This document shows positions 8,425-63,209 of a stretch of DNA of 64,000 nt, in pieces. The notes under the pieces are model-generated. The model made no database searches, had not been told where the DNA came from, and worked only from the letters and a program-made list of their open reading frames with translations. Position numbers and translations under genes: made by a program. This DNA is from Escherichia phage FL08. The stretch is from the sequence record PP400785; one strand, given 5' to 3'. The stretch's first letter is position 1. Each line of letters opens with the position of its first letter.

Positions 8425-8628
8425 TCATGATTTATCCCCATAGATGTCTCTCATCAATTTAAGCGCTGAGCGTTCTAATTTCTTTTCTTTCTCGGCACTA
8501 ATCATTGATTTCATCCATTCTTCTGATTCGTTCTGCATTTCTTTATTTGCCTGTTCAACCCAACCATCATCAATATACATTGAGTTTGGTCTATTGAACC
8601 ATTCAAGCATCTTCTTCAGAGCTTTCAT
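8425..8628 (-). CDS. hypothetical protein (67 aa)
   Basis: small ORF. Confidence 0.35.
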
Positions 8629-9100
8629 TTGTTTTACCTAAAACAACAGTAGGAGCATCATCAAATTCATGAATTTTGAGCAAATTTGGATGTAAACTAT
8701 TCCATACAGAAGAAATAAAGTATGATAAAGCATCTTCACTCGCAATTATAAATTTATTTCCTTTATCTATTTTCCAACTATATACTGAATCGTACGAATA
8801 AAAAGATAAAGGTTTATCATTATATTGTTCTGCGCTAACATTAATGTATTCTGATTTAGTAAATGCTTCAATTGCTCTAAACGGAATATTTGGTACAGTT
8901 TCAATAATACCAATCTTTTTAAGTTTTATTTCAGCATCTTCTGGAACTGGCATTGAAACGAAATTTTCTACGAGATACATTGGGTCACAATAACCCTTAT
9001 CAATCATTACTGCTACAGTAATTGGAACATCTTTAGCAAATGACAAACTATTACTGCTAATATACATTTCAAACAAAATCGCTTCCATAATTTTCCTCAA
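8603..9100 (-). CDS. hypothetical protein (about 161-165 aa; possible Mrh-like by position)
   Basis: ORF between modB and soc; start uncertain. Confidence 0.45.
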
Positions 9101-9435
9101 TCACAAGATGTAGATGAACAACTAGAATCACAAGAACTTCCACATGAATCGCCCGTCCACACATGAACAGGAACATTAGTATCATATGAATCAGAACTAG
9201 ACTGTGTATTCTGCGTATTAGATGATGTAGGTGTTGACCAACGCCAAGGATTTTTATAATATTCCTGGGCTTCTTCATAAGTCATAGTAACTGCTTCTAC
9301 TGTTCCATCTCCCATATAAACATATTCAACTACAGTTAAAGGAAGGTAGTCATTTGAAATAGGAACTACACCTTCTCCGGGAGTTGTAGAGAAAAAATCC
9401 GTAAAGAAACTTTTAAACCAATTAAAGATAAACAT
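9097..9435 (-). CDS. hypothetical protein with Cys/Ser-rich C-terminal tail
   Basis: Start moved to MFIFNWF (TAATG stop-start overlap with upstream ORF); hydrophobic N-terminus; C-terminus [18 protein letters not shown]. Confidence 0.45.
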
Positions 9436-9647
9436 TACAAAAAGCCTCTTTGAAATTCGACTCTTTGAAATCCACCCCAATCAGTGTATCGCATTTCAGC
9501 ATTGAACTCGACTGAACCATCTGCATGCATCATGAATGAATGCGTGACGACATCACAATCCCAGCTTTTCATACCCCATTTATCAGCGATAGCTTTATCA
9601 AGAACCTTCTGGAGGTCTTCATTTGGTTTAATCCAACGATTTAACAT
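9435..9647 (-). CDS. hypothetical protein (70 aa)
   Basis: small ORF upstream of Cys-rich ORF; stop overlaps its start. Confidence 0.4.
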   Translation of the reverse strand: MLNRWIKPNEDLQKVLDKAIADKWGMKSWDCDVVTHSFMMHADGSVEFNAEMRYTDWGGFQRVEFQRGFL

Positions 9648-9718
9648 AGTGTTCTCCTCTATAAGATATTTTTATTATACCACACTCATTTTGACATGTA
9701 AACCATAAAATGAAAAAA

Positions 9719-9736
9719 GGAATCCCGGAGGATTCC
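9719..9736 (-). terminator. intrinsic terminator hairpin downstream of soc
   Basis: ggaatcc-cgga-ggattcc inverted repeat followed by U-run on minus transcript. Confidence 0.6.
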
Positions 9737-9745
9737 TTAAATTAT

Positions 9746-10003
9746 TTAACCACCGACACCAGGTGTCGGTGTAACAGTCCAAAGACCTTCATTAGCAGTG
9801 ATCCATTCAGTACGCTGATTTTCTTCATATACTGTAGAATATGCTGCTTTTTCAGAAGGGAATGTCTGATAATGAGCATCAGAAATTTTGTGAACATCAG
9901 AATAAAGAGGGAAAGCTACAGAAATTTCTTTACCCTGAATTGTACCACCATCAACTGCTTGGTCAAATGTTTTGATATTAACATAACCACGAGTACTAGC
10001 CAT
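9746..10003 (-). CDS. soc: small outer capsid protein Soc
   Basis: Sequence MASTRGYVNIKTF...ISVAFPLYSDVHKIS...YQTFPSEKAAYSTVYEENQRTEWI recognisable as T4 Soc. Confidence 0.85.
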   Translation of the reverse strand: MASTRGYVNIKTFDQAVDGGTIQGKEISVAFPLYSDVHKISDAHYQTFPSEKAAYSTVYEENQRTEWITANEGLWTVTPTPGVGG

Positions 10004-10033
10004 GTAATTCTCCTTTTATTTAAATTACATGAT

Positions 10034-10041
10034 TATTTATA
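10034..10041 (-). promoter_or_regulatory. late promoter (TATAAATA) for soc
   Basis: Minus-strand TATAAATA about 30 nt upstream of soc ATG; matches T4 gp55-dependent late promoter consensus. Confidence 0.6.
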
Positions 10042-10071
10042 ATAAATTCTCGCGGCTTTTAAGACGAGCTG

Positions 10072-10590
10072 TTAATAACCTCGGTCTTGACGAGCGAAAT
10101 TTTCAGCATTTTTCAGATAATAAAGTTTAAAGATTTCTTCTGCTGTAAGACCAAGACCTTGAAACATGTTCAGAACAAAATGGAGAATATCAATCATTTC
10201 GAATTTGATTTCTAACTGGTCCTGTGGAGACAAATCAGTAATCAGAGTTTCACGACGTTCACCATGCTGAGCTTTCCACGGCTTCCATACAGCAGATGCA
10301 TCTTTTTCGCCATTGCTCATACCACCAAGAGAAGTCAGAAGTTCGCGGAATTCATCATCAATATAATCTTTCTGATTACGCAGCCAATCAACAACTTCAC
10401 CTGCAGTAGCCAAATCATCAGGATGACGGTTATATTCAGGTTTATCTTTAGCTAAACGAACTTGCAGAGATTTCTGCATATCAAGCATTACCTGCAGCGG
10501 GTCTTTTTCATCACCGAGAATATCCCAATATTCATTTTGAGCTTTATCAGCGCCTTCGATCAGTTGACTACATTCGTTGAAATGTGGCAT
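10072..10590 (-). CDS. 56: dCTPase / dCTP pyrophosphatase (gp56, MazG-like)
   Basis: 172 aa; position between soc and 61; all-alpha MazG-like composition; T4 gp56 about 171 aa. Confidence 0.8.
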   Translation of the reverse strand: MPHFNECSQLIEGADKAQNEYWDILGDEKDPLQVMLDMQKSLQVRLAKDKPEYNRHPDDLATAGEVVDWLRNQKDYIDDEFRELLTSLGGMSNGEKDASAVWKPWKAQHGERRETLITDLSPQDQLEIKFEMIDILHFVLNMFQGLGLTAEEIFKLYYLKNAENFARQDRGY

Positions 10591-10591
10591 G

Positions 10592-11242
10592 TTATTTTTC
10601 CTTTCTTATGAAGTTTTCTATCATATGTCTATAGCAGATATTAGGATAACCTGCCTTGACAGCTATTTTATTAAATTTTGTGCGCTTAGGTCTATTATTA
10701 TAAACCCATAATTCATAAAGCGCATCATAACTATTCCATATTTCTCCTCGCCTAGGATTTGGTAAACCATATCGAGGTGAATTTTTACCGCTAAATCTTC
10801 CTTTTCGGGCTTTACTCATATTAGCCTTGGCTTCATCGGATATAATTTTACCTTTATGAGCTAGACGCATTTTGGCTTTAGTTTCTTCTGGGGTCTTTTT
10901 GCCTTTAATCCATGACGGCTTGCCATATCTAGGATTATTTTCACCCGAGAAAAGAACAGAGTTTTGGATTTTAAGGGTTTCTATTAATCTACTTGTTAAT
11001 TTAACACCTTTATTATATCGCATTAAATTTACAGCATAATGCAATCCTCTCACATCTGGATATATTTTAGTTAATAATCTATGAGCTATAAAATGCTCAC
11101 GCGCAGTTAACTCAACAAGATTGTTTTTGTCATCTGCTCCTCCTATACATCTAGGAATTATATGATGGCGTTCTTTATATCCGCCAAGATGCCGGCATTT
11201 AGCTTTTGTAATTAAAGCCGAGTAAATTTTTTGGTAATTCAC
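10592..11242 (-). CDS. HNH homing endonuclease (Mob-like)
   Basis: N-terminal HHIIPRCIGG...NLV.LT..EH..AH HNH motif; C-terminal NUMOD-like repeats (NPRYGK, SPRYGL). Confidence 0.8.
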   Translation of the reverse strand: MNYQKIYSALITKAKCRHLGGYKERHHIIPRCIGGADDKNNLVELTAREHFIAHRLLTKIYPDVRGLHYAVNLMRYNKGVKLTSRLIETLKIQNSVLFSGENNPRYGKPSWIKGKKTPEETKAKMRLAHKGKIISDEAKANMSKARKGRFSGKNSPRYGLPNPRRGEIWNSYDALYELWVYNNRPKRTKFNKIAVKAGYPNICYRHMIENFIRKEK

Positions 11243-12541: not shown

Positions 12542-12706
12542 TTACTCTTCTTTTTCTTTAGATTCCTCTTTTTTCTTTTTAGGAATCTGTTCAGGACCTT
12601 TATTTACTACAGCGCCTGACGTTGTTCCAGTAGAGATATTTTCAGGATTACCACCTGAATCTCCAGCTACCATATCTTCTTTGATAAATTCTTTATATGT
12701 TTTCAT
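12542..12706 (-). CDS. small protein (54 aa) with capsid-targeting-sequence-like N-terminus
   Basis: Sub-threshold ORF exactly filling the 61-upstream gap; SD AGAGG; N-terminus MKTYKEFIKE resembles T4 CTS MKTYQEFIAE; Lys/Glu-rich tail. Confidence 0.4.
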   Translation of the reverse strand: MKTYKEFIKEDMVAGDSGGNPENISTGTTSGAVVNKGPEQIPKKKKEESKEKEE

Positions 12707-56200: not shown

Positions 56201-56378
56201 CTAAACGAATAGGTTCATGAATGCCATATCCCTGAACAGAAATTTCTGTCGTAGGATAAATTCCATCAATATCACCCATATTCCAGGCTTCATTAAATTG
56301 CTGTTCGCCTGAATTACTAAACCACTCGGCGAAAGCATTTAGCACATCTTTAGAACCTTCAATAATTATCTTTGCCAT
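56157..56378 (-). CDS. hypothetical protein (73 aa)
   Basis: ORF in operon. Confidence 0.4.
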   Translation of the reverse strand: MAKIIIEGSKDVLNAFAEWFSNSGEQQFNEAWNMGDIDGIYPTTEISVQGYGIHEPIRLVEYDLCTGEEVKYD

Positions 56379-56740
56379 TACAAACTCTCGGTGAAGGTAC
56401 GAGCGATAACGTCGCGCTGCTGTTCCGGAGTCAGAGAGTTAAAGCGAACTGCATAACCGGATACACGGATGGTCAGCTGCGGATATTTTTCCGGATGCTT
56501 AACTGCATCTTCCAGAGTTTCACGACGCAGAACGTTAACGTTCAGGTGTTGACCACCTTCAATTTTAACTGTAGGTTGTTGCTCAATTTCAATTTCACGG
56601 GCATGCAAACCGTAGAAAATTTCTGGGTCTACAAAAGAGTCCTCTTTAAAGGTTTTAGAGACAATAATTCGTGCTTGAATACCATCTTCAAAATAAATAG
56701 TACCTTTATGTGTGCCTTCAAGAATTTGATATGCTTTCAT
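56378..56740 (-). CDS. autonomous glycyl radical cofactor (GrcA/YfiD-like)
   Basis: 120 aa; glycyl radical signature RVSGYAVRF near C-terminus; PFL C-terminal domain-like. Confidence 0.7.
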
Positions 56741-56747
56741 ATAAACC

Positions 56748-57077
56748 TCAATTAGAAAATAAATTTATCCAAGATTGTTCTTTAATTAAAAATGGCTCAG
56801 AATCATATGCCATTAAACTTTGCGTAATTAATCCTTTAAAAGGTCCATCAATAAATTCCATGGTAAAATATGGAATTTTATTCATTAGCCGTGCATTAGG
56901 AGCAGTGCACAAAACTCTGCATCCTTTGAATACGCCTTTTTGTAATTTGTATTGCTTAGGATAAAATTCGCTTAAAATGTTATTTTTTGCTAAAATTTCA
57001 AAATGATTCACCAATTTATTTTTAATAGTTTTTGGCGAAAAATAAAGATATTCGAAAAGCTGAGTGTCTGTCATCAT
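56748..57077 (-). CDS. hypothetical protein (about 110 aa)
   Basis: start trimmed to ATG overlapping upstream stop. Confidence 0.4.
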
Positions 57078-57613
57078 TGCATTCCAATTACGAAAAACTG
57101 TGGACGAGTAATACCACCAATACAACATTTAATATTACAGCAGCAGTGTACAGTGTCAATATGGACACTATAAATCTTATCCATATCAGGAGATTTGACA
57201 GGCTCATCAATTATATACAAAATTCGCGAAAGCGATAAACCTCTGAACTTACTTCCTTTATTACCAATAAAACTGCGTACAGAATCAGTAAATAAACGAA
57301 AACGTATATCATCATTAGAATAACGCGAAAATTCCTTTTTGATGTTATTTGCAGAAATTTTAGCATAAGCTGAAGTATTAGAAAGAACAATAACTGTTCC
57401 GCCATCATACAACCAATTAGCAGCGAAGTTAGTCACAGCAATTGATTTACCGGATTGACGTCCACCATCTAGTCGAAGTGTGCAATACTGTTTAAGTAAG
57501 TCTTCAAATGGCGGGATATATTCGTTTTTACAAATTTCTTCTACTCTAGCATCAGAATGGTGTGTAAAAGCATTCATCAGGGATAGATAAGGACCAGTTA
57601 AAAATGTTCTCAT
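57074..57613 (-). CDS. P-loop-containing protein with Cys-cluster C-terminus
   Basis: GRQSGKS Walker A-like motif; C-terminal HCCCNIKCC; start trimmed to MRTFLTG. Confidence 0.45.
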   Translation of the reverse strand: MRTFLTGPYLSLMNAFTHHSDARVEEICKNEYIPPFEDLLKQYCTLRLDGGRQSGKSIAVTNFAANWLYDGGTVIVLSNTSAYAKISANNIKKEFSRYSNDDIRFRLFTDSVRSFIGNKGSKFRGLSLSRILYIIDEPVKSPDMDKIYSVHIDTVHCCCNIKCCIGGITRPQFFVIGMQ

Positions 57614-57754
57614 TTTGTTCTCTCTAGGTTTGGGACAATTCATGCGCCATGAATTGTCCATTTCTGTATTTACCCATTACCGCACTTAGGCTCGACCTTA
57701 TTACAGGTTGGCGGGAATCCCTTATAGAATCATAAGGTCCAGGTTGTTCCCATA

Positions 57755-58228
57755 TTATTTGAACGATTTAACGTACTGAATAGAACCTTTACTATTTACA
57801 AAGACAATTTTACCATTTTTATTATACATGGTAGCAGTACGTTGATAGCCATAAGTTTGTTTACCAGATTGATAACCAACTAATGCGAAATTATCTTCAC
57901 CCATTTTATTCTGTTTAGCGCGAATGCGTTCATGGCCATGTGCCATAAGAACCTTAGCATCACCTGTTGCAATGGATCGACGAGTTTTTTCATCTTCAAC
58001 TGTATTAACAAAATCGTCAAATGAATCAAATTTAGCATGAGATTTATTATACAGTTTTCCATCTACTGCATAATTATATCCTTGTACATCCATCTCAACT
58101 TCTGTACCATCATCCAGTACAGCAGTGATTTTCTGTCCTTTTTTAAATTTCAAAAGATCAGTAAAAGATTCAGCAATAATTTGAGAATTAATAGCTGCTT
58201 CAGTAATAAATTCTTGATATGTTTTCAT
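57755..58228 (-). CDS. internal protein (IP) with capsid targeting sequence
   Basis: N-terminus MKTYQEFITE matches T4 CTS MKTYQEFIAE 9/10; basic 157-aa body; position upstream of regB, adjacent to e. Confidence 0.6.
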   Translation of the reverse strand: MKTYQEFITEAAINSQIIAESFTDLLKFKKGQKITAVLDDGTEVEMDVQGYNYAVDGKLYNKSHAKFDSFDDFVNTVEDEKTRRSIATGDAKVLMAHGHERIRAKQNKMGEDNFALVGYQSGKQTYGYQRTATMYNKNGKIVFVNSKGSIQYVKSFK

Positions 58229-58322
58229 GTGTATCCTTTAAATGTAAATATTTTAATTAATAATTTATCTCTTCAAGTAACTGTGAATATACTATCACAA
58301 TTCTAGGAGAAAGTAAATAACT

Positions 58323-58853
<531 letters not shown>

Positions 58854-59309
58854 TTAAAAGAGGGTGTTCATTATTCGGTAAAGTGAAGGACCCATCACAT
58901 ATTGCCACTGAGTACGAGGAATAAGAGCAAAAGCGTCCATTTCTGGAATCATAACGCCATCTTTATTTTCAAAATAAGACTCGCAGCGGCAATTTCTAAA
59001 CATCTCATGCTCTACTGGAATCGTATAATAAAATAACTGTAGGTCTTTATTACTAGAATATTTAAATACACCTAGGTCTTCTAGAAGGTCTGGATTATAA
59101 TTGCTAAAACCGGTCTCTTCTAAACATTCTCTTCGTGCTGCATCTAATGCGCTTAAATCCGAATTTTCTACACGGCCCTTTGGAATATCCCAACGATGTG
59201 CCATCATTCCAGGCTTACGAGAACCAGTAACCCGACCCATAAATAAATCTTTATCTTCTGTCATAAAGATAATACCAGCTGATAATGTTTTCATTTTAAT
59301 TTCCTGCAT
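58854..59309 (-). CDS. nudE: Nudix hydrolase NudE
   Basis: 151 aa; Nudix box GRVENSDLSALDAARRECLEETGF. Confidence 0.8.
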   Translation of the reverse strand: MQEIKMKTLSAGIIFMTEDKDLFMGRVTGSRKPGMMAHRWDIPKGRVENSDLSALDAARRECLEETGFSNYNPDLLEDLGVFKYSSNKDLQLFYYTIPVEHEMFRNCRCESYFENKDGVMIPEMDAFALIPRTQWQYVMGPSLYRIMNTLF

Positions 59310-59779
59310 TCAGTGATAAAGTTATTTAAATTTTGAGTATATTTCTTTTCATCAAAAATCTTTTGTTGTCTGCGTAAACGCCATGGCATTTCAATGAACA
59401 CACACCATATCCCAGATAATATTGCTGCTGTCAAAATATTAACAAATATAGTACAAAGAACCCAATCTCCTATTCTGTCCATTGGATTTTTTCCAAAGAA
59501 GTAAAATACGAATGATGACACAGGAAGACTAATGATATACCACAGAAGCATATTCTTATCCGTAAACCATTCAGCGTTCGTTAACTTAGCACGACCGTTT
59601 TGAATACACACGAATTTATCGTCTGTTATAGTAGATGGCTTAGCTGCTTGATATCCCATTCTAAACTCCCTAATCAACAAATTTTTCATATCTTCGGAAC
59701 AACCATTCCAGTCAACTCTATCAACTGAAATGCCATCGTCCCCATCGTCTAAATCATACCAGCGAGTTTTTAAAATCAT
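59291..59779 (-). CDS. membrane protein (162 aa)
   Basis: two hydrophobic helices in C-terminal half. Confidence 0.45.
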   Translation of the reverse strand: MILKTRWYDLDDGDDGISVDRVDWNGCSEDMKNLLIREFRMGYQAAKPSTITDDKFVCIQNGRAKLTNAEWFTDKNMLLWYIISLPVSSFVFYFFGKNPMDRIGDWVLCTIFVNILTAAILSGIWCVFIEMPWRLRRQQKIFDEKKYTQNLNNFITECRKLK

Positions 59780-59855
59780 TTGATTTTCCTACAATTACTC
59801 ACAAACTCTTCCATTGATTCTTTTTCAATATAAGACATGTAGCTATTATATTCTT

Positions 59856-60137
59856 TTAATTGTATTTTGTAATCTTTTTTCTTTGCCAATTTATTTTAAA
59901 ATTATCATAATGAAAATATAACATAGTACCAAAGAATGAAAATAATGAAATCGCTATAGTATAACGAAGTTCACTCCAAACCTCTGTTATAATTACTGTG
60001 CCGTCAATGTTTAAAATAAAACAGTCAATTAACAATCCAATAAGACTACCCGCAAGAGCTGCAAATACTGATACAGCAAGAATTAATAGTGCCTCAGGAA
60101 ACGAATATTTGACTTTATTTAATTTTGGCTTTTGCAT
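59856..60137 (-). CDS. small membrane protein (93 aa)
   Basis: two TM helices. Confidence 0.4.
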   Translation of the reverse strand: MQKPKLNKVKYSFPEALLILAVSVFAALAGSLIGLLIDCFILNIDGTVIITEVWSELRYTIAISLFSFFGTMLYFHYDNFKINWQRKKITKYN

Positions 60138-61087
60138 CGTGATTCCTTAACAAATTTCATAATTTCATTAAATTCATACATATCAAGTTTAAGCTGATGT
60201 TCTTTTTTAATCTTTTTGCACTGGGCTTTCCAATCACGTACACGTTTACGATAGTGTCTTCCTTGATACCAGTATCCTACCCAATTTACAGGTATTAATA
60301 AAAGCGGAACTACCAATGGAAGAATTAGTGTTGCTCCAAATATTACACCAGATTCAATATCAGTCATAACGTCTATAACCATTCCAGCAATCAGCAGAAT
60401 CACAAATGATACAGCTACCACAGGACCTATTAACACATCAGTAGAAATTATCTGACGCTTTAATTCATACTTCAACGGTTTACTTGGAAGGTATAGTGAT
60501 GGTTTTGACATATTCTCTGCATTCCTTAACAAATTTTCTAATAATAAATCGCTTTCAAAATTGGGATTTTCTACGAATTTATCAAAAAGATCATCAACAA
60601 TAGTTAAGATATTCTTTTTACTAAGAATACGTTTATTTTCATGCTTCGTTTCAGAATCAACTATAAGAGTAAAGAAATATTTCTTGCCCTGAAATTTTAC
60701 AGTAGTATCAATATAAAATAAATTTGACTTTTGTAAATTACGTTTAAACCATGCATCACTTAAACTATAAACGCCAAGATAATCATAATCGTCGTTTAAA
60801 TAACAGACCGTCCATTCAGGAGAAACAAAATCAGTAAATTCAACGTCAAAATCGCATGTTAATAAATGAATTGATTCAATACTGTTAATAAGTATTCCAG
60901 GACGTATTAAAGACTTTTTACCTCTGGAAAATCTTCCAGAAAGACTTTCATCAGTTTCATATGAAGAACCCCAATAATAATTACGTCCTTCTGCCATACG
61001 TTTAAGAGCATTTAATAATTGATCTGGAACATCAACCTGTCTTTGGAACTCTTCAAACATTGAATTGAAATCACTTTGCATTTTCAT
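60119..61087 (-). CDS. membrane-anchored protein (322 aa)
   Basis: soluble N-terminal domain, two C-terminal TM helices, basic tail. Confidence 0.45.
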   Translation of the reverse strand: MKMQSDFNSMFEEFQRQVDVPDQLLNALKRMAEGRNYYWGSSYETDESLSGRFSRGKKSLIRPGILINSIESIHLLTCDFDVEFTDFVSPEWTVCYLNDDYDYLGVYSLSDAWFKRNLQKSNLFYIDTTVKFQGKKYFFTLIVDSETKHENKRILSKKNILTIVDDLFDKFVENPNFESDLLLENLLRNAENMSKPSLYLPSKPLKYELKRQIISTDVLIGPVVAVSFVILLIAGMVIDVMTDIESGVIFGATLILPLVVPLLLIPVNWVGYWYQGRHYRKRVRDWKAQCKKIKKEHQLKLDMYEFNEIMKFVKESRCKSQN

Positions 61088-62691: not shown

Positions 62692-63165
62692 TTATTTGAT
62701 TTGTTTAGCAGACCAAATGCGATCTTTAATAATTTTTTGGATGTCTTCAACATACTCTAGGTCATGAGCATGTGGATTATCTTTGAAACTATGAGCTCGC
62801 GCAAGTTTCTGGCCTTCGGTCTTAATTATCAAAAGTTCTTTAAGAATTGCTTCATACCTAGAGATAATTCCTTTAGCAATATTTTTTTCTTGTGCTGCTT
62901 TAGGGTCAGCCTTAGGAGCAGGTTTACCTGAAGCCTTTGCAAAAGCAGCTCCAGTAGCAACTAAACTTTTCCAGGCCATACTAACTGCATTTCCCGTAAA
63001 TCCTTCCGCTTTCATGTCGCGTGCGAACTGGAATCGCGATTCATCAGAAGCATCTTTATAAGAATATTTACCCGCTGCAATGGCTGCTTTTGCGACAGCT
63101 TGAATTTCGGTGCTAGATGCTTCATTTAACACCGCTTCATTTAAAAATTGAGTATATGATTTCAT
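62692..63165 (-). CDS. internal-protein-like protein with CTS-like N-terminus
   Basis: 157 aa; N-terminus MKSYTQFLNE resembles CTS; Lys/Ala-rich; late promoter TATAAATA upstream. Confidence 0.55.
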   Translation of the reverse strand: MKSYTQFLNEAVLNEASSTEIQAVAKAAIAAGKYSYKDASDESRFQFARDMKAEGFTGNAVSMAWKSLVATGAAFAKASGKPAPKADPKAAQEKNIAKGIISRYEAILKELLIIKTEGQKLARAHSFKDNPHAHDLEYVEDIQKIIKDRIWSAKQIK

Positions 63166-63201: not shown

Positions 63202-63209
63202 TATTTATA
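63202..63209 (-). promoter_or_regulatory. late promoter (TATAAATA) for IP-like gene
   Basis: minus-strand TATAAATA ~35 nt upstream of ATG, directly after terminator hairpin. Confidence 0.55.

Follow-up and report, generated by a model that had tools for sequence, protein, structure and literature searches.

The internal proteins (IPs) of bacteriophage T4 are ejected into the host together with the DNA (PMC12373910, PMC9026906). The first 10 residues of T4 IPIII are enough for incorporation into the head, and amber-suppression analysis of IPIII assigned targeting mainly to residues 4 and 7 and processing to residues 8 and 10 of this leader, the capsid targeting sequence (CTS), whereas gp21 cleaves after the glutamate in the motif L/I-x-E (PMC9026906). 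The GmrSD type IV restriction enzymes act on glucosyl-hmC DNA; T4 Ip1, Ip2 and Ip3 are mutually unrelated and were recently shown to be specific inhibitors, each of another member of this enzyme family (PMC12373910, PMC3012670). Of the three proteins, T4 IPI/IPI*, which inhibits GmrS/GmrD of E. coli CT596, is small, packaged, gp21-processed and injected, and it represents the paradigm for the anti-restriction role that is proposed below for Ip4.

The window analysed here, a stretch of 64,000 nucleotides (64 kb) from Escherichia phage FL08 (sequence record PP400785), contains a 157-aa ORF whose product has the N-terminus MKTYQEFITEAAINS (in a longer view MKTYQEFITEAAINSQIIAESF) and opens with MKTYQEFITEA. 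A sequence-only reading of the window had described this ORF, with its strand unstated, as a gene for a CTS-bearing internal protein next to the lysozyme gene. The ORF was confirmed and lies on the minus strand, and its neighbour is the lysozyme gene e (PF00959). Searching the profile collections with the ORF product revealed two full-length matches: PHROG 3155 (phrog_3155), "internal virion protein" (3.3e-101, 337 bits, positions 1-157 of 157), and Pfam DUF7412 (PF24183; 3.3e-95, 317 bits against a curated cut-off of 27 bits, residues 1-157 of the 158-position model). The annotation Ip4 is carried by the records of the phages RB14, RB27, ime09 and K3; the RB14 label reads "Ip4 ... similar to T2, RB70 Ip4" and the RB27 note reads "Ip4". 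We take the name, which also appears in the UniProt/K3 entry, to have been in use since the 1990s. The 2.4-kb DNA around the gene was 97-98% identical to RB27, RB18, RB14, RB3 and many other Tequatroviruses. The Ip4 proteins of T2, K3, RB14, RB27 and RB70 (UniProt Q38388) have the same length of 157 aa, are encoded at the same e - ip4 - vs.8 locus and are 97.5-99.4% identical within Tequatrovirus (99.4% for the T2 protein and the Ip4 of the window); the database copies differ from the Ip4 of the window by one or two amino-acid substitutions and by nothing substantial. The ORF is ip4, a known, named and widespread internal head protein gene of T2-type T4-like phages, and as such an ordinary gene and not a discovery. 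The profile matches, the Ip4 annotations and the detection of an orthologue in virions (see below) all back the view of it as a CTS-bearing internal protein. The AT-rich context, in which many spurious short ORFs occur, could be taken to favour a chance open frame at this position. This reading is effectively excluded by the full-length HMM matches (E < 1e-90), the presence of the gene in 470 phage records with 61-70% conservation between genera, the observed peptides of the orthologue and the Shine-Dalgarno sequence AAGGA 5 nt from the ATG. The coordinates of all features are given in Table 1.

Table 1. Features of the ip4 locus, its neighbours and the other CTS-like ORFs of the window (arrow, predicted gp21 cut).
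Feature	Position	Strand	Remarks
ip4 coding sequence	57755..58228	minus	157-aa precursor, stop codon included; ATG start
CTS MKTYQEFITE, ip4 codons 1-10	58199..58228	minus	predicted gp21 cut ITE↓A after Glu10
Mature Ip4 body, residues 11-157 and stop codon	57755..58198	minus	~16.5 kDa, pI 9.1
Second (I/L/M)-x-E-(S/A) motif, at Glu20 (Ip4 residues 18-20)	58169..58177	minus	invariant in 14/14 homologues, flanking linker variable
Shine-Dalgarno sequence AAGGA of ip4	58238..58234	minus	5 nt 5' of the ATG
Conserved upstream cassette	58229..58322	minus	94% identical to T4 e-ipIII, 80% to T4 ipII upstream region; alignment of window, RB14, T4 ipIII and T4 ipII
TTTACT, 17-nt spacer, TAGTAT	58317..58312, 58294..58289	minus	inside the ip4 upstream cassette
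Palindrome AATTGTGA/TCACAGTT	58302..58279	minus	8-bp; perfect in T4; stems conserved, loop varies
Lysozyme gene e	58323..58817	minus	conserved upstream neighbour; PF00959; 96% identical to T4 e
Pair of T4 late-promoter boxes TATAAATA	58831-58838, 58844-58851	minus	exact matches, upstream of e
T4-homologous block 1 (blastn)	56700..57755		96% identity; ends on the final nucleotide of the ip4 stop codon
T4-homologous block 2 (blastn)	58197..59000		94% identity; begins within ip4 codon 11
Stretch without T4 counterpart	57756..58196		441 nt between the two blocks
vs.6	56378..56740	minus	C-terminal glycyl-radical domain sequence
vs.8	57074..57661	minus	PHROG 1488; 195 aa
e.3, first part	59856..60137	minus	93 aa; split by frameshift
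e.3, remainder	59779..59883	minus	in other frame
e.5 and e.4 as single ORF	60119..61087	minus	322 aa; PHROG 2607 and PHROG 2604 in tandem
Second CTS-like ORF	62692..63165	minus	157 aa; leader MKSYTQFLNEA; Y4, F7, L8, E10 present
Late promoter TATAAATA of the second CTS-like ORF	63202-63209	minus	exact match, 37 nt upstream
gp61.1 ORF	12542..12706	minus	54 aa, directly upstream of primase gene 61; PHROG 1823, no function

The Ip4 leader was compared with the translated T4 record (NC_000866), in which the leaders of IPII and IPIII both read MKTYQEFIAE. Nine of the ten residues are identical, as had been claimed from the sequence, with A9T as the sole change; the alignment to IPII and IPIII, proposed in the same reading as a check, revealed an unrelated mature body behind this leader. 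Both targeting residues (Y4 and F7) and both processing residues (I8 and E10) are kept in Ip4, the A9T change sits on the free "x" of L/I-x-E, and the gp21 motif reads I8-T9-E10↓A11. Throughout an alignment of 14 homologues F7 and E10 do not vary, with Y or F at position 4 and I, L or M at position 8. The leader positions are also kept in Klebsiella, Salmonella and Serratia phages at 61-70% overall identity. Moreover, an exhaustive profile search turned up three remote relatives (E 1e-17 to 1e-22) in which DNA homology to T4 is gone and which open with a leader of the type MNF(E/K)(Q/D)FLNE↓S. Block 2, which covers T4 ipIII codons 1-11, the intergenic region and e, is 94% identical to T4 DNA, and the leader match therefore reflects homology and not chance. 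The conservation of the leader in genera that do not have the upstream cassette indicates that it is kept as a peptide and not as mere recombinogenic DNA. These comparisons support the prediction that the Ip4 precursor would be targeted to the head by a 10-residue address tag.

The gene order at the locus is e - ipIII - ipII - denV - vs.8 in T4 and e - ip4 - vs.8 in the window, RB14, RB27 and T2, and ip4 lies 94 nt downstream of e. The T4 segment that matches the stretch without T4 counterpart comprises 1441 nt and carries the ipIII body, ipII and denV. From the alignment, the ipIII body, ipII and denV of T4 are replaced here by a single Ip4 body, the leader and the upstream cassette in front of it being the same, and the site would have been formed by cassette recombination: the leader and the ~95-nt upstream element, common to T4 ipIII and ipII, would serve as homology anchor while the body is swapped. 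No tblastn match to denV (endonuclease V, the pyrimidine-dimer glycosylase encoded between ipII and vs.8 in T4) was found in the whole 64 kb window, the stretch 57662..57754 between vs.8 and ip4 included. Ip4 was also considered as a simple allele of ipII/ipIII and this was rejected, given that Jiaodaviruses carry e - Ip4 - ipII - ipIII in tandem; this arrangement makes Ip4 an additional member of the internal-protein set. Downstream of ip4 (57650-57770) an RNA structure or terminator was searched for and the predicted fold was no better than that of shuffled sequences (z = 0.12). Ip4 shares with T4 IPIII and IPII the leader (9/10), the upstream cassette, the slot downstream of e, the predicted prohead-core targeting, the gp21 I-x-E logic and the character of a small basic protein. 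It differs from them in its mature body, which is unrelated (best blastp E 0.05 without the leader), and the T4 locus holds two IP genes and denV whereas that of the window holds one gene.

The upstream cassette contains a promoter-like element and a small palindrome. The sequence TTTACT-N17-TAGTAT agrees at 11/12 positions (5/6 in the -10 box) with the PeSL early-promoter consensus TTTACW-N17-TAYWAT, which was reported for the pair of PST and T4, and PeSL elements have been linked to cassette shuffling with express recall of the IP locus (Comeau et al., PMC4122927). The same element falls below the threshold of a generic sigma-70 scan. We infer from the consensus match that it may have promoter activity; the palindrome could form an RNA hairpin or a protein-binding site. 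As in the PeSL-type mobile regulatory cassettes (Arbiol 2010; Comeau 2014), a promoter-like element and a small palindrome are located at the boundary of a swapped cassette; unlike in these, the homology anchor of ip4 reaches into the coding leader (the CTS). The idea that ip4 has a late promoter of its own was examined and rejected: no exact TATAAATA was found between e and ip4, and the surroundings of e/Ip4 in the Klebsiella and Salmonella loci gave no exact late box either. The two boxes upstream of e are a possible source of late e-ip4 transcripts, and the abutting or overlapping arrangement of e and Ip4 in other genera argues for co-transcription.

The distribution of Ip4 was assessed by tblastn. 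The 470 phage records with Ip4, T2 included, compare with 261 records for IPIII. Identity to the Ip4 of the window was 95-99.4% in Tequatroviruses of Escherichia, Shigella, Yersinia and Citrobacter and 61-70% in phages of Klebsiella (Jiaodavirus), Salmonella (Gelderlandvirus) and Serratia. The order e then Ip4 was found in three genera, namely in the window, RB14, RB27 and T2 as well as in Jiaodavirus and Gelderlandvirus. In Jiaodavirus ip4 abuts e, in Gelderlandvirus it overlaps e by 14 nt, and the upstream cassette is missing in both. Cross-genus identity was 68-70% for Ip4, 66-67% for e, 57-65% for regB, 55% for nudE and 37-42% for vs.8. The similar identity of Ip4 and e argues for a functional protein under purifying selection, and by these comparisons Ip4 has been vertically inherited and is not diversifying fast.

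The tandem e - Ip4 - IPII-like - IPIII was located at 8561..10767 in Klebsiella phage ValerieMcCarty03. The IPIII of the Klebsiella phages and that of T4 share ~87% identity, as compared with only 57-68% for e, Ip4 and regB between these genera; this hints that ipIII/ipII were transferred horizontally more recently. In the published Jiaodavirus virion table Ip4 has 66/66 PSMs and the IPII-like protein 1/26, and IPIII was not seen there (PMC13119998).

The most direct evidence for packaging came from a 2026 study in which CsCl-purified virions of Jiaodavirus ValerieMcCarty03 and 04 were analysed by LC-MS/MS (PMC13119998). A "gp127/119 internal virion protein" was identified with 66/66 spectra (PSMs) and listed beside the gp128/120 lysozyme; the portal protein in the same table had 112-120 PSMs as compared with 66 for this Ip4 orthologue (PMC13119998). 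Locus tag 127 of ValerieMcCarty03 is a 159-aa gene abutting e and matches the published gp127. The protein of Klebsiella phage ValerieMcCarty04 (WKM80649.1) is 69% identical to the Ip4 of the window over its full length, and the supplementary peptide table of this phage contains 66 rows for it. Within this table the string KTYQEFLNESR occurs 66 times, in the full-sequence column only; the leader peptide TYQEFLNESR (residues 3-12) is present in 0/66 PSMs, and no peptide from residues 1-12 of WKM80649.1 was found among the 66 PSMs. By comparison, the string RLATVGVMTESVGSNLLKF was counted 69 times, which means that three spectra stem from the tryptic peptide LATVGVMTESVGSNLLK (residues 13-29). 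Because the Ser-Arg dipeptide left over after a cut behind Glu10 is too short to be detected, the peptide pattern is as predicted for this cut. The pattern fits gp21 cleavage after Glu10, and the position is read from internal peptides and not from a direct N-terminal determination. By orthology with this 69%-identical protein from another genus, the data support the presence of Ip4 in virions and the removal of its leader. Virion proteomics and mapping of the gp21 cleavage site had been named in the sequence-only reading as checks, with absence from purified virions as the finding that would speak against packaging; in the orthologue, if not in FL08 itself, the opposite was found and the peptides fit the predicted cut.

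These observations also bear on the reading that Ip4 is not packaged at all, the leader being a recombination by-product of the conserved upstream cassette and the protein working in the producing cell. The leader and the upstream cassette are 94% identical to T4 DNA, and at this identity leader conservation within Tequatrovirus alone is no proof of selection on the peptide. Against this, Y/F4, F7, I/L/M8 and E10 persist in phages of Klebsiella, Salmonella and Serratia, where the gene abuts or overlaps e and has no upstream cassette, and the remote relatives retain the MNF(E/K)(Q/D)FLNE↓S start even at E-values of 1e-17 to 1e-22. Finally, the orthologue is abundant and leaderless in purified virions, which already contradicts an unpackaged Ip4 and leaves this reading very improbable.

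A second gp21 site was considered at Glu20, given the invariance of the (I/L/M)-x-E-(S/A) motif there and the disorder of residues 12-19 in the AF2 model of Ip4. This candidate was weakened by the orthologue, since its three spectra of residues 13-29 span the site uncleaved and show that some of the virion protein, at least, is uncut at Glu20. The semi-tryptic peptide SVGSNLLK was absent from the orthologue peptide table, though other semi-tryptic peptides are listed. The Glu20 motif might be a conditional or post-injection processing site. A similar second L-N-E-S is present in one remote relative of Ip4.

The mature Ip4 body is basic (11% Lys). The search of Ip4 without its leader against T4 IPI, IPII and IPIII by blastp gave nothing significant. 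The search of PDB sequences with phmmer gave nothing meaningful and that of NCBIfam gave sub-threshold noise only. An exhaustive profile search of 1.84 billion representative proteins returned 8 matches, all of which are Ip4-family members, remote relatives or fragments save two weak partial matches. The AF2 model of Ip4 (pLDDT 77, pTM 0.73) had a sole neighbour among predicted viral structures, the BFVD model of UniProt Q38388 "Ip4 [Enterobacteria phage K3]" (98% identity, TM 0.92), and no informative fold match was obtained. The Ip1, Ip2 and Ip3 bodies showed neither sequence nor fold likeness to Ip4. As the body is without detectable outside relatives in sequence or fold, its function is argued by analogy only.

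A six-frame scan of the 64 kb window for the CTS-like pattern revealed three ORF starts only. Besides ip4, the window has the second CTS-like ORF, whose product carries a duplicated L-N-E-A motif (FLNEAVLNEA). The gene is carried by 511 records; its homologues keep MK(S/T)Y..FL.E↓A, and it is hypothetical in all records listed and belongs to PHROG 2280, to which no function is assigned. In RB14 the corresponding position between e.8 and rnaC is taken by a gene with an identical leader and a body only 20% identical, which follows the pattern of the ip loci, a shared leader with differing bodies. This suggests a third internal-protein locus, which may be under-annotated. The claim that this ORF has the same length as ip4 and a different body was borne out, as blastp of Ip4 without its leader against this product gave nothing better than E=3.8. 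That the window encodes two distinct injected proteins, as was also claimed, is plausible: the part concerning Ip4 is strengthened by the orthologue in virions, and for the second product no proteomic evidence from virions was found. A further ORF, which starts with MKTYKEFIKED (8/10 to the T4 CTS, with an I-K-E motif), is gp61.1 and occurs in ~1230 T4-like phage records, Acinetobacter and Aeromonas phages included.

Several neighbouring genes showed features of their own. The genes e.5 and e.4 of T4 are read as a single ORF, and a frameshift splits e.3; the fusions or truncations may be real, or sequencing errors may account for them. The vs.8 ORF, 195 aa long in the window as compared with 219 aa in T4, has a GGRQSGKS Walker-A-like motif and weak P-loop-type matches over residues 59-158 (AAA_14, E 0.029; terminase-large-subunit PHROG 2, E 1.5e-5). 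The vs.6 product is described in RefSeq as an autonomous glycyl radical cofactor (GrcA-like); this glycyl-radical protein is already known and is easily mistaken for an nrdD fragment.

Taken together, ip4 is very probably a non-essential gene of T2-type Tequatroviruses whose product is packaged by its CTS and processed by gp21 and whose body is an exchangeable cassette. According to the proposed mechanism, ip4 would be expressed late together with e, with a PeSL-type promoter of its own as a possible second source. The leader MKTYQEFITE would then attach the precursor to the prohead's scaffolding core during assembly, as judged from T4 IPIII genetics and from conservation. Cleavage by gp21 after Glu10 at the I-x-E motif, which the orthologue proteomics supports, would leave the basic ~16.5 kDa protein inside the head, amid the packaged DNA. 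Analogy with T4 IPI*, IPII and IPIII suggests that Ip4 would be ejected with the DNA into the cell at the next infection. In the last and least certain step, to which we give about an even chance, the injected Ip4 would neutralise a host defence against the incoming glucosyl-hmC DNA, most likely a nuclease-type system.

In published assays with active GmrSD variants, the proteins ip4-10 did not reproducibly inhibit or interact with the enzymes (PMC12373910 section 10, Suppl. Fig. 9), and T2 is restricted by GmrSD-ECOR17 and GmrSD-ECOR21 (PMC12373910). Since no reproducible inhibition was seen with ip4-10 and the Ip4-bearing T2 is restricted, Ip4 is not assigned to the GmrSD inhibitors. T4 Ip2 and Ip3 have identified GmrSD targets whereas Ip4 has none, and a full-text search of the literature revealed no paper giving Ip4 a target. 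Tentatively, and at somewhat less than even chance, Ip4 could inhibit a host defence other than the GmrSD enzymes tested so far, maybe another class that senses incoming modified DNA. Ip4 diverges no faster than lysozyme, which is unusual for an arms-race inhibitor and counts against a defence role.

This slow evolution between genera would rather suit a packaged Ip4 that acts mainly inside the particle, as a core or assembly aid or as a neutraliser of DNA charge, comparable to the contribution of IPIII to assembly. T4 IPIII mutants show slower head assembly and ~40% of the normal burst (PMC9026906), and Ip4 sits where T4 has ipIII, with the same leader and regulatory cassette in front. The basic character of the mature protein (pI 9.1, 11% Lys), the abundance of the orthologue in virions (66 PSMs as compared with 112-120 for the portal) and the direct screen that gave no GmrSD target also agree with such a role. 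However, T4 IPIII is itself a specific GmrSD inhibitor, so that an anti-defence role is compatible with an assembly phenotype. Moreover, Jiaodaviruses hold Ip4 alongside IPII and IPIII and need no stand-in for IPIII, and T4 does well without Ip4. A mainly intra-capsid function is the main rival, less likely than injection followed by inhibition of a host defence, which itself has about an even chance.

What the present analysis adds on Ip4 is a precise placement of the cassette boundaries with respect to T4, the finding that the four mapped leader positions are conserved, and virion proteomics of an orthologue that fits the cut after Glu10. The CTS leader is a reliable sequence-only marker of packaged proteins in T4-like phages. 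If Ip4 has a target other than GmrSD, its near-lysozyme rate of evolution would reflect a conserved and widespread target and not a strain-specific one. Once identified, the target of Ip4 would add to the map of phage counter-defence and help to explain host-range differences of therapeutic T4-like phages.
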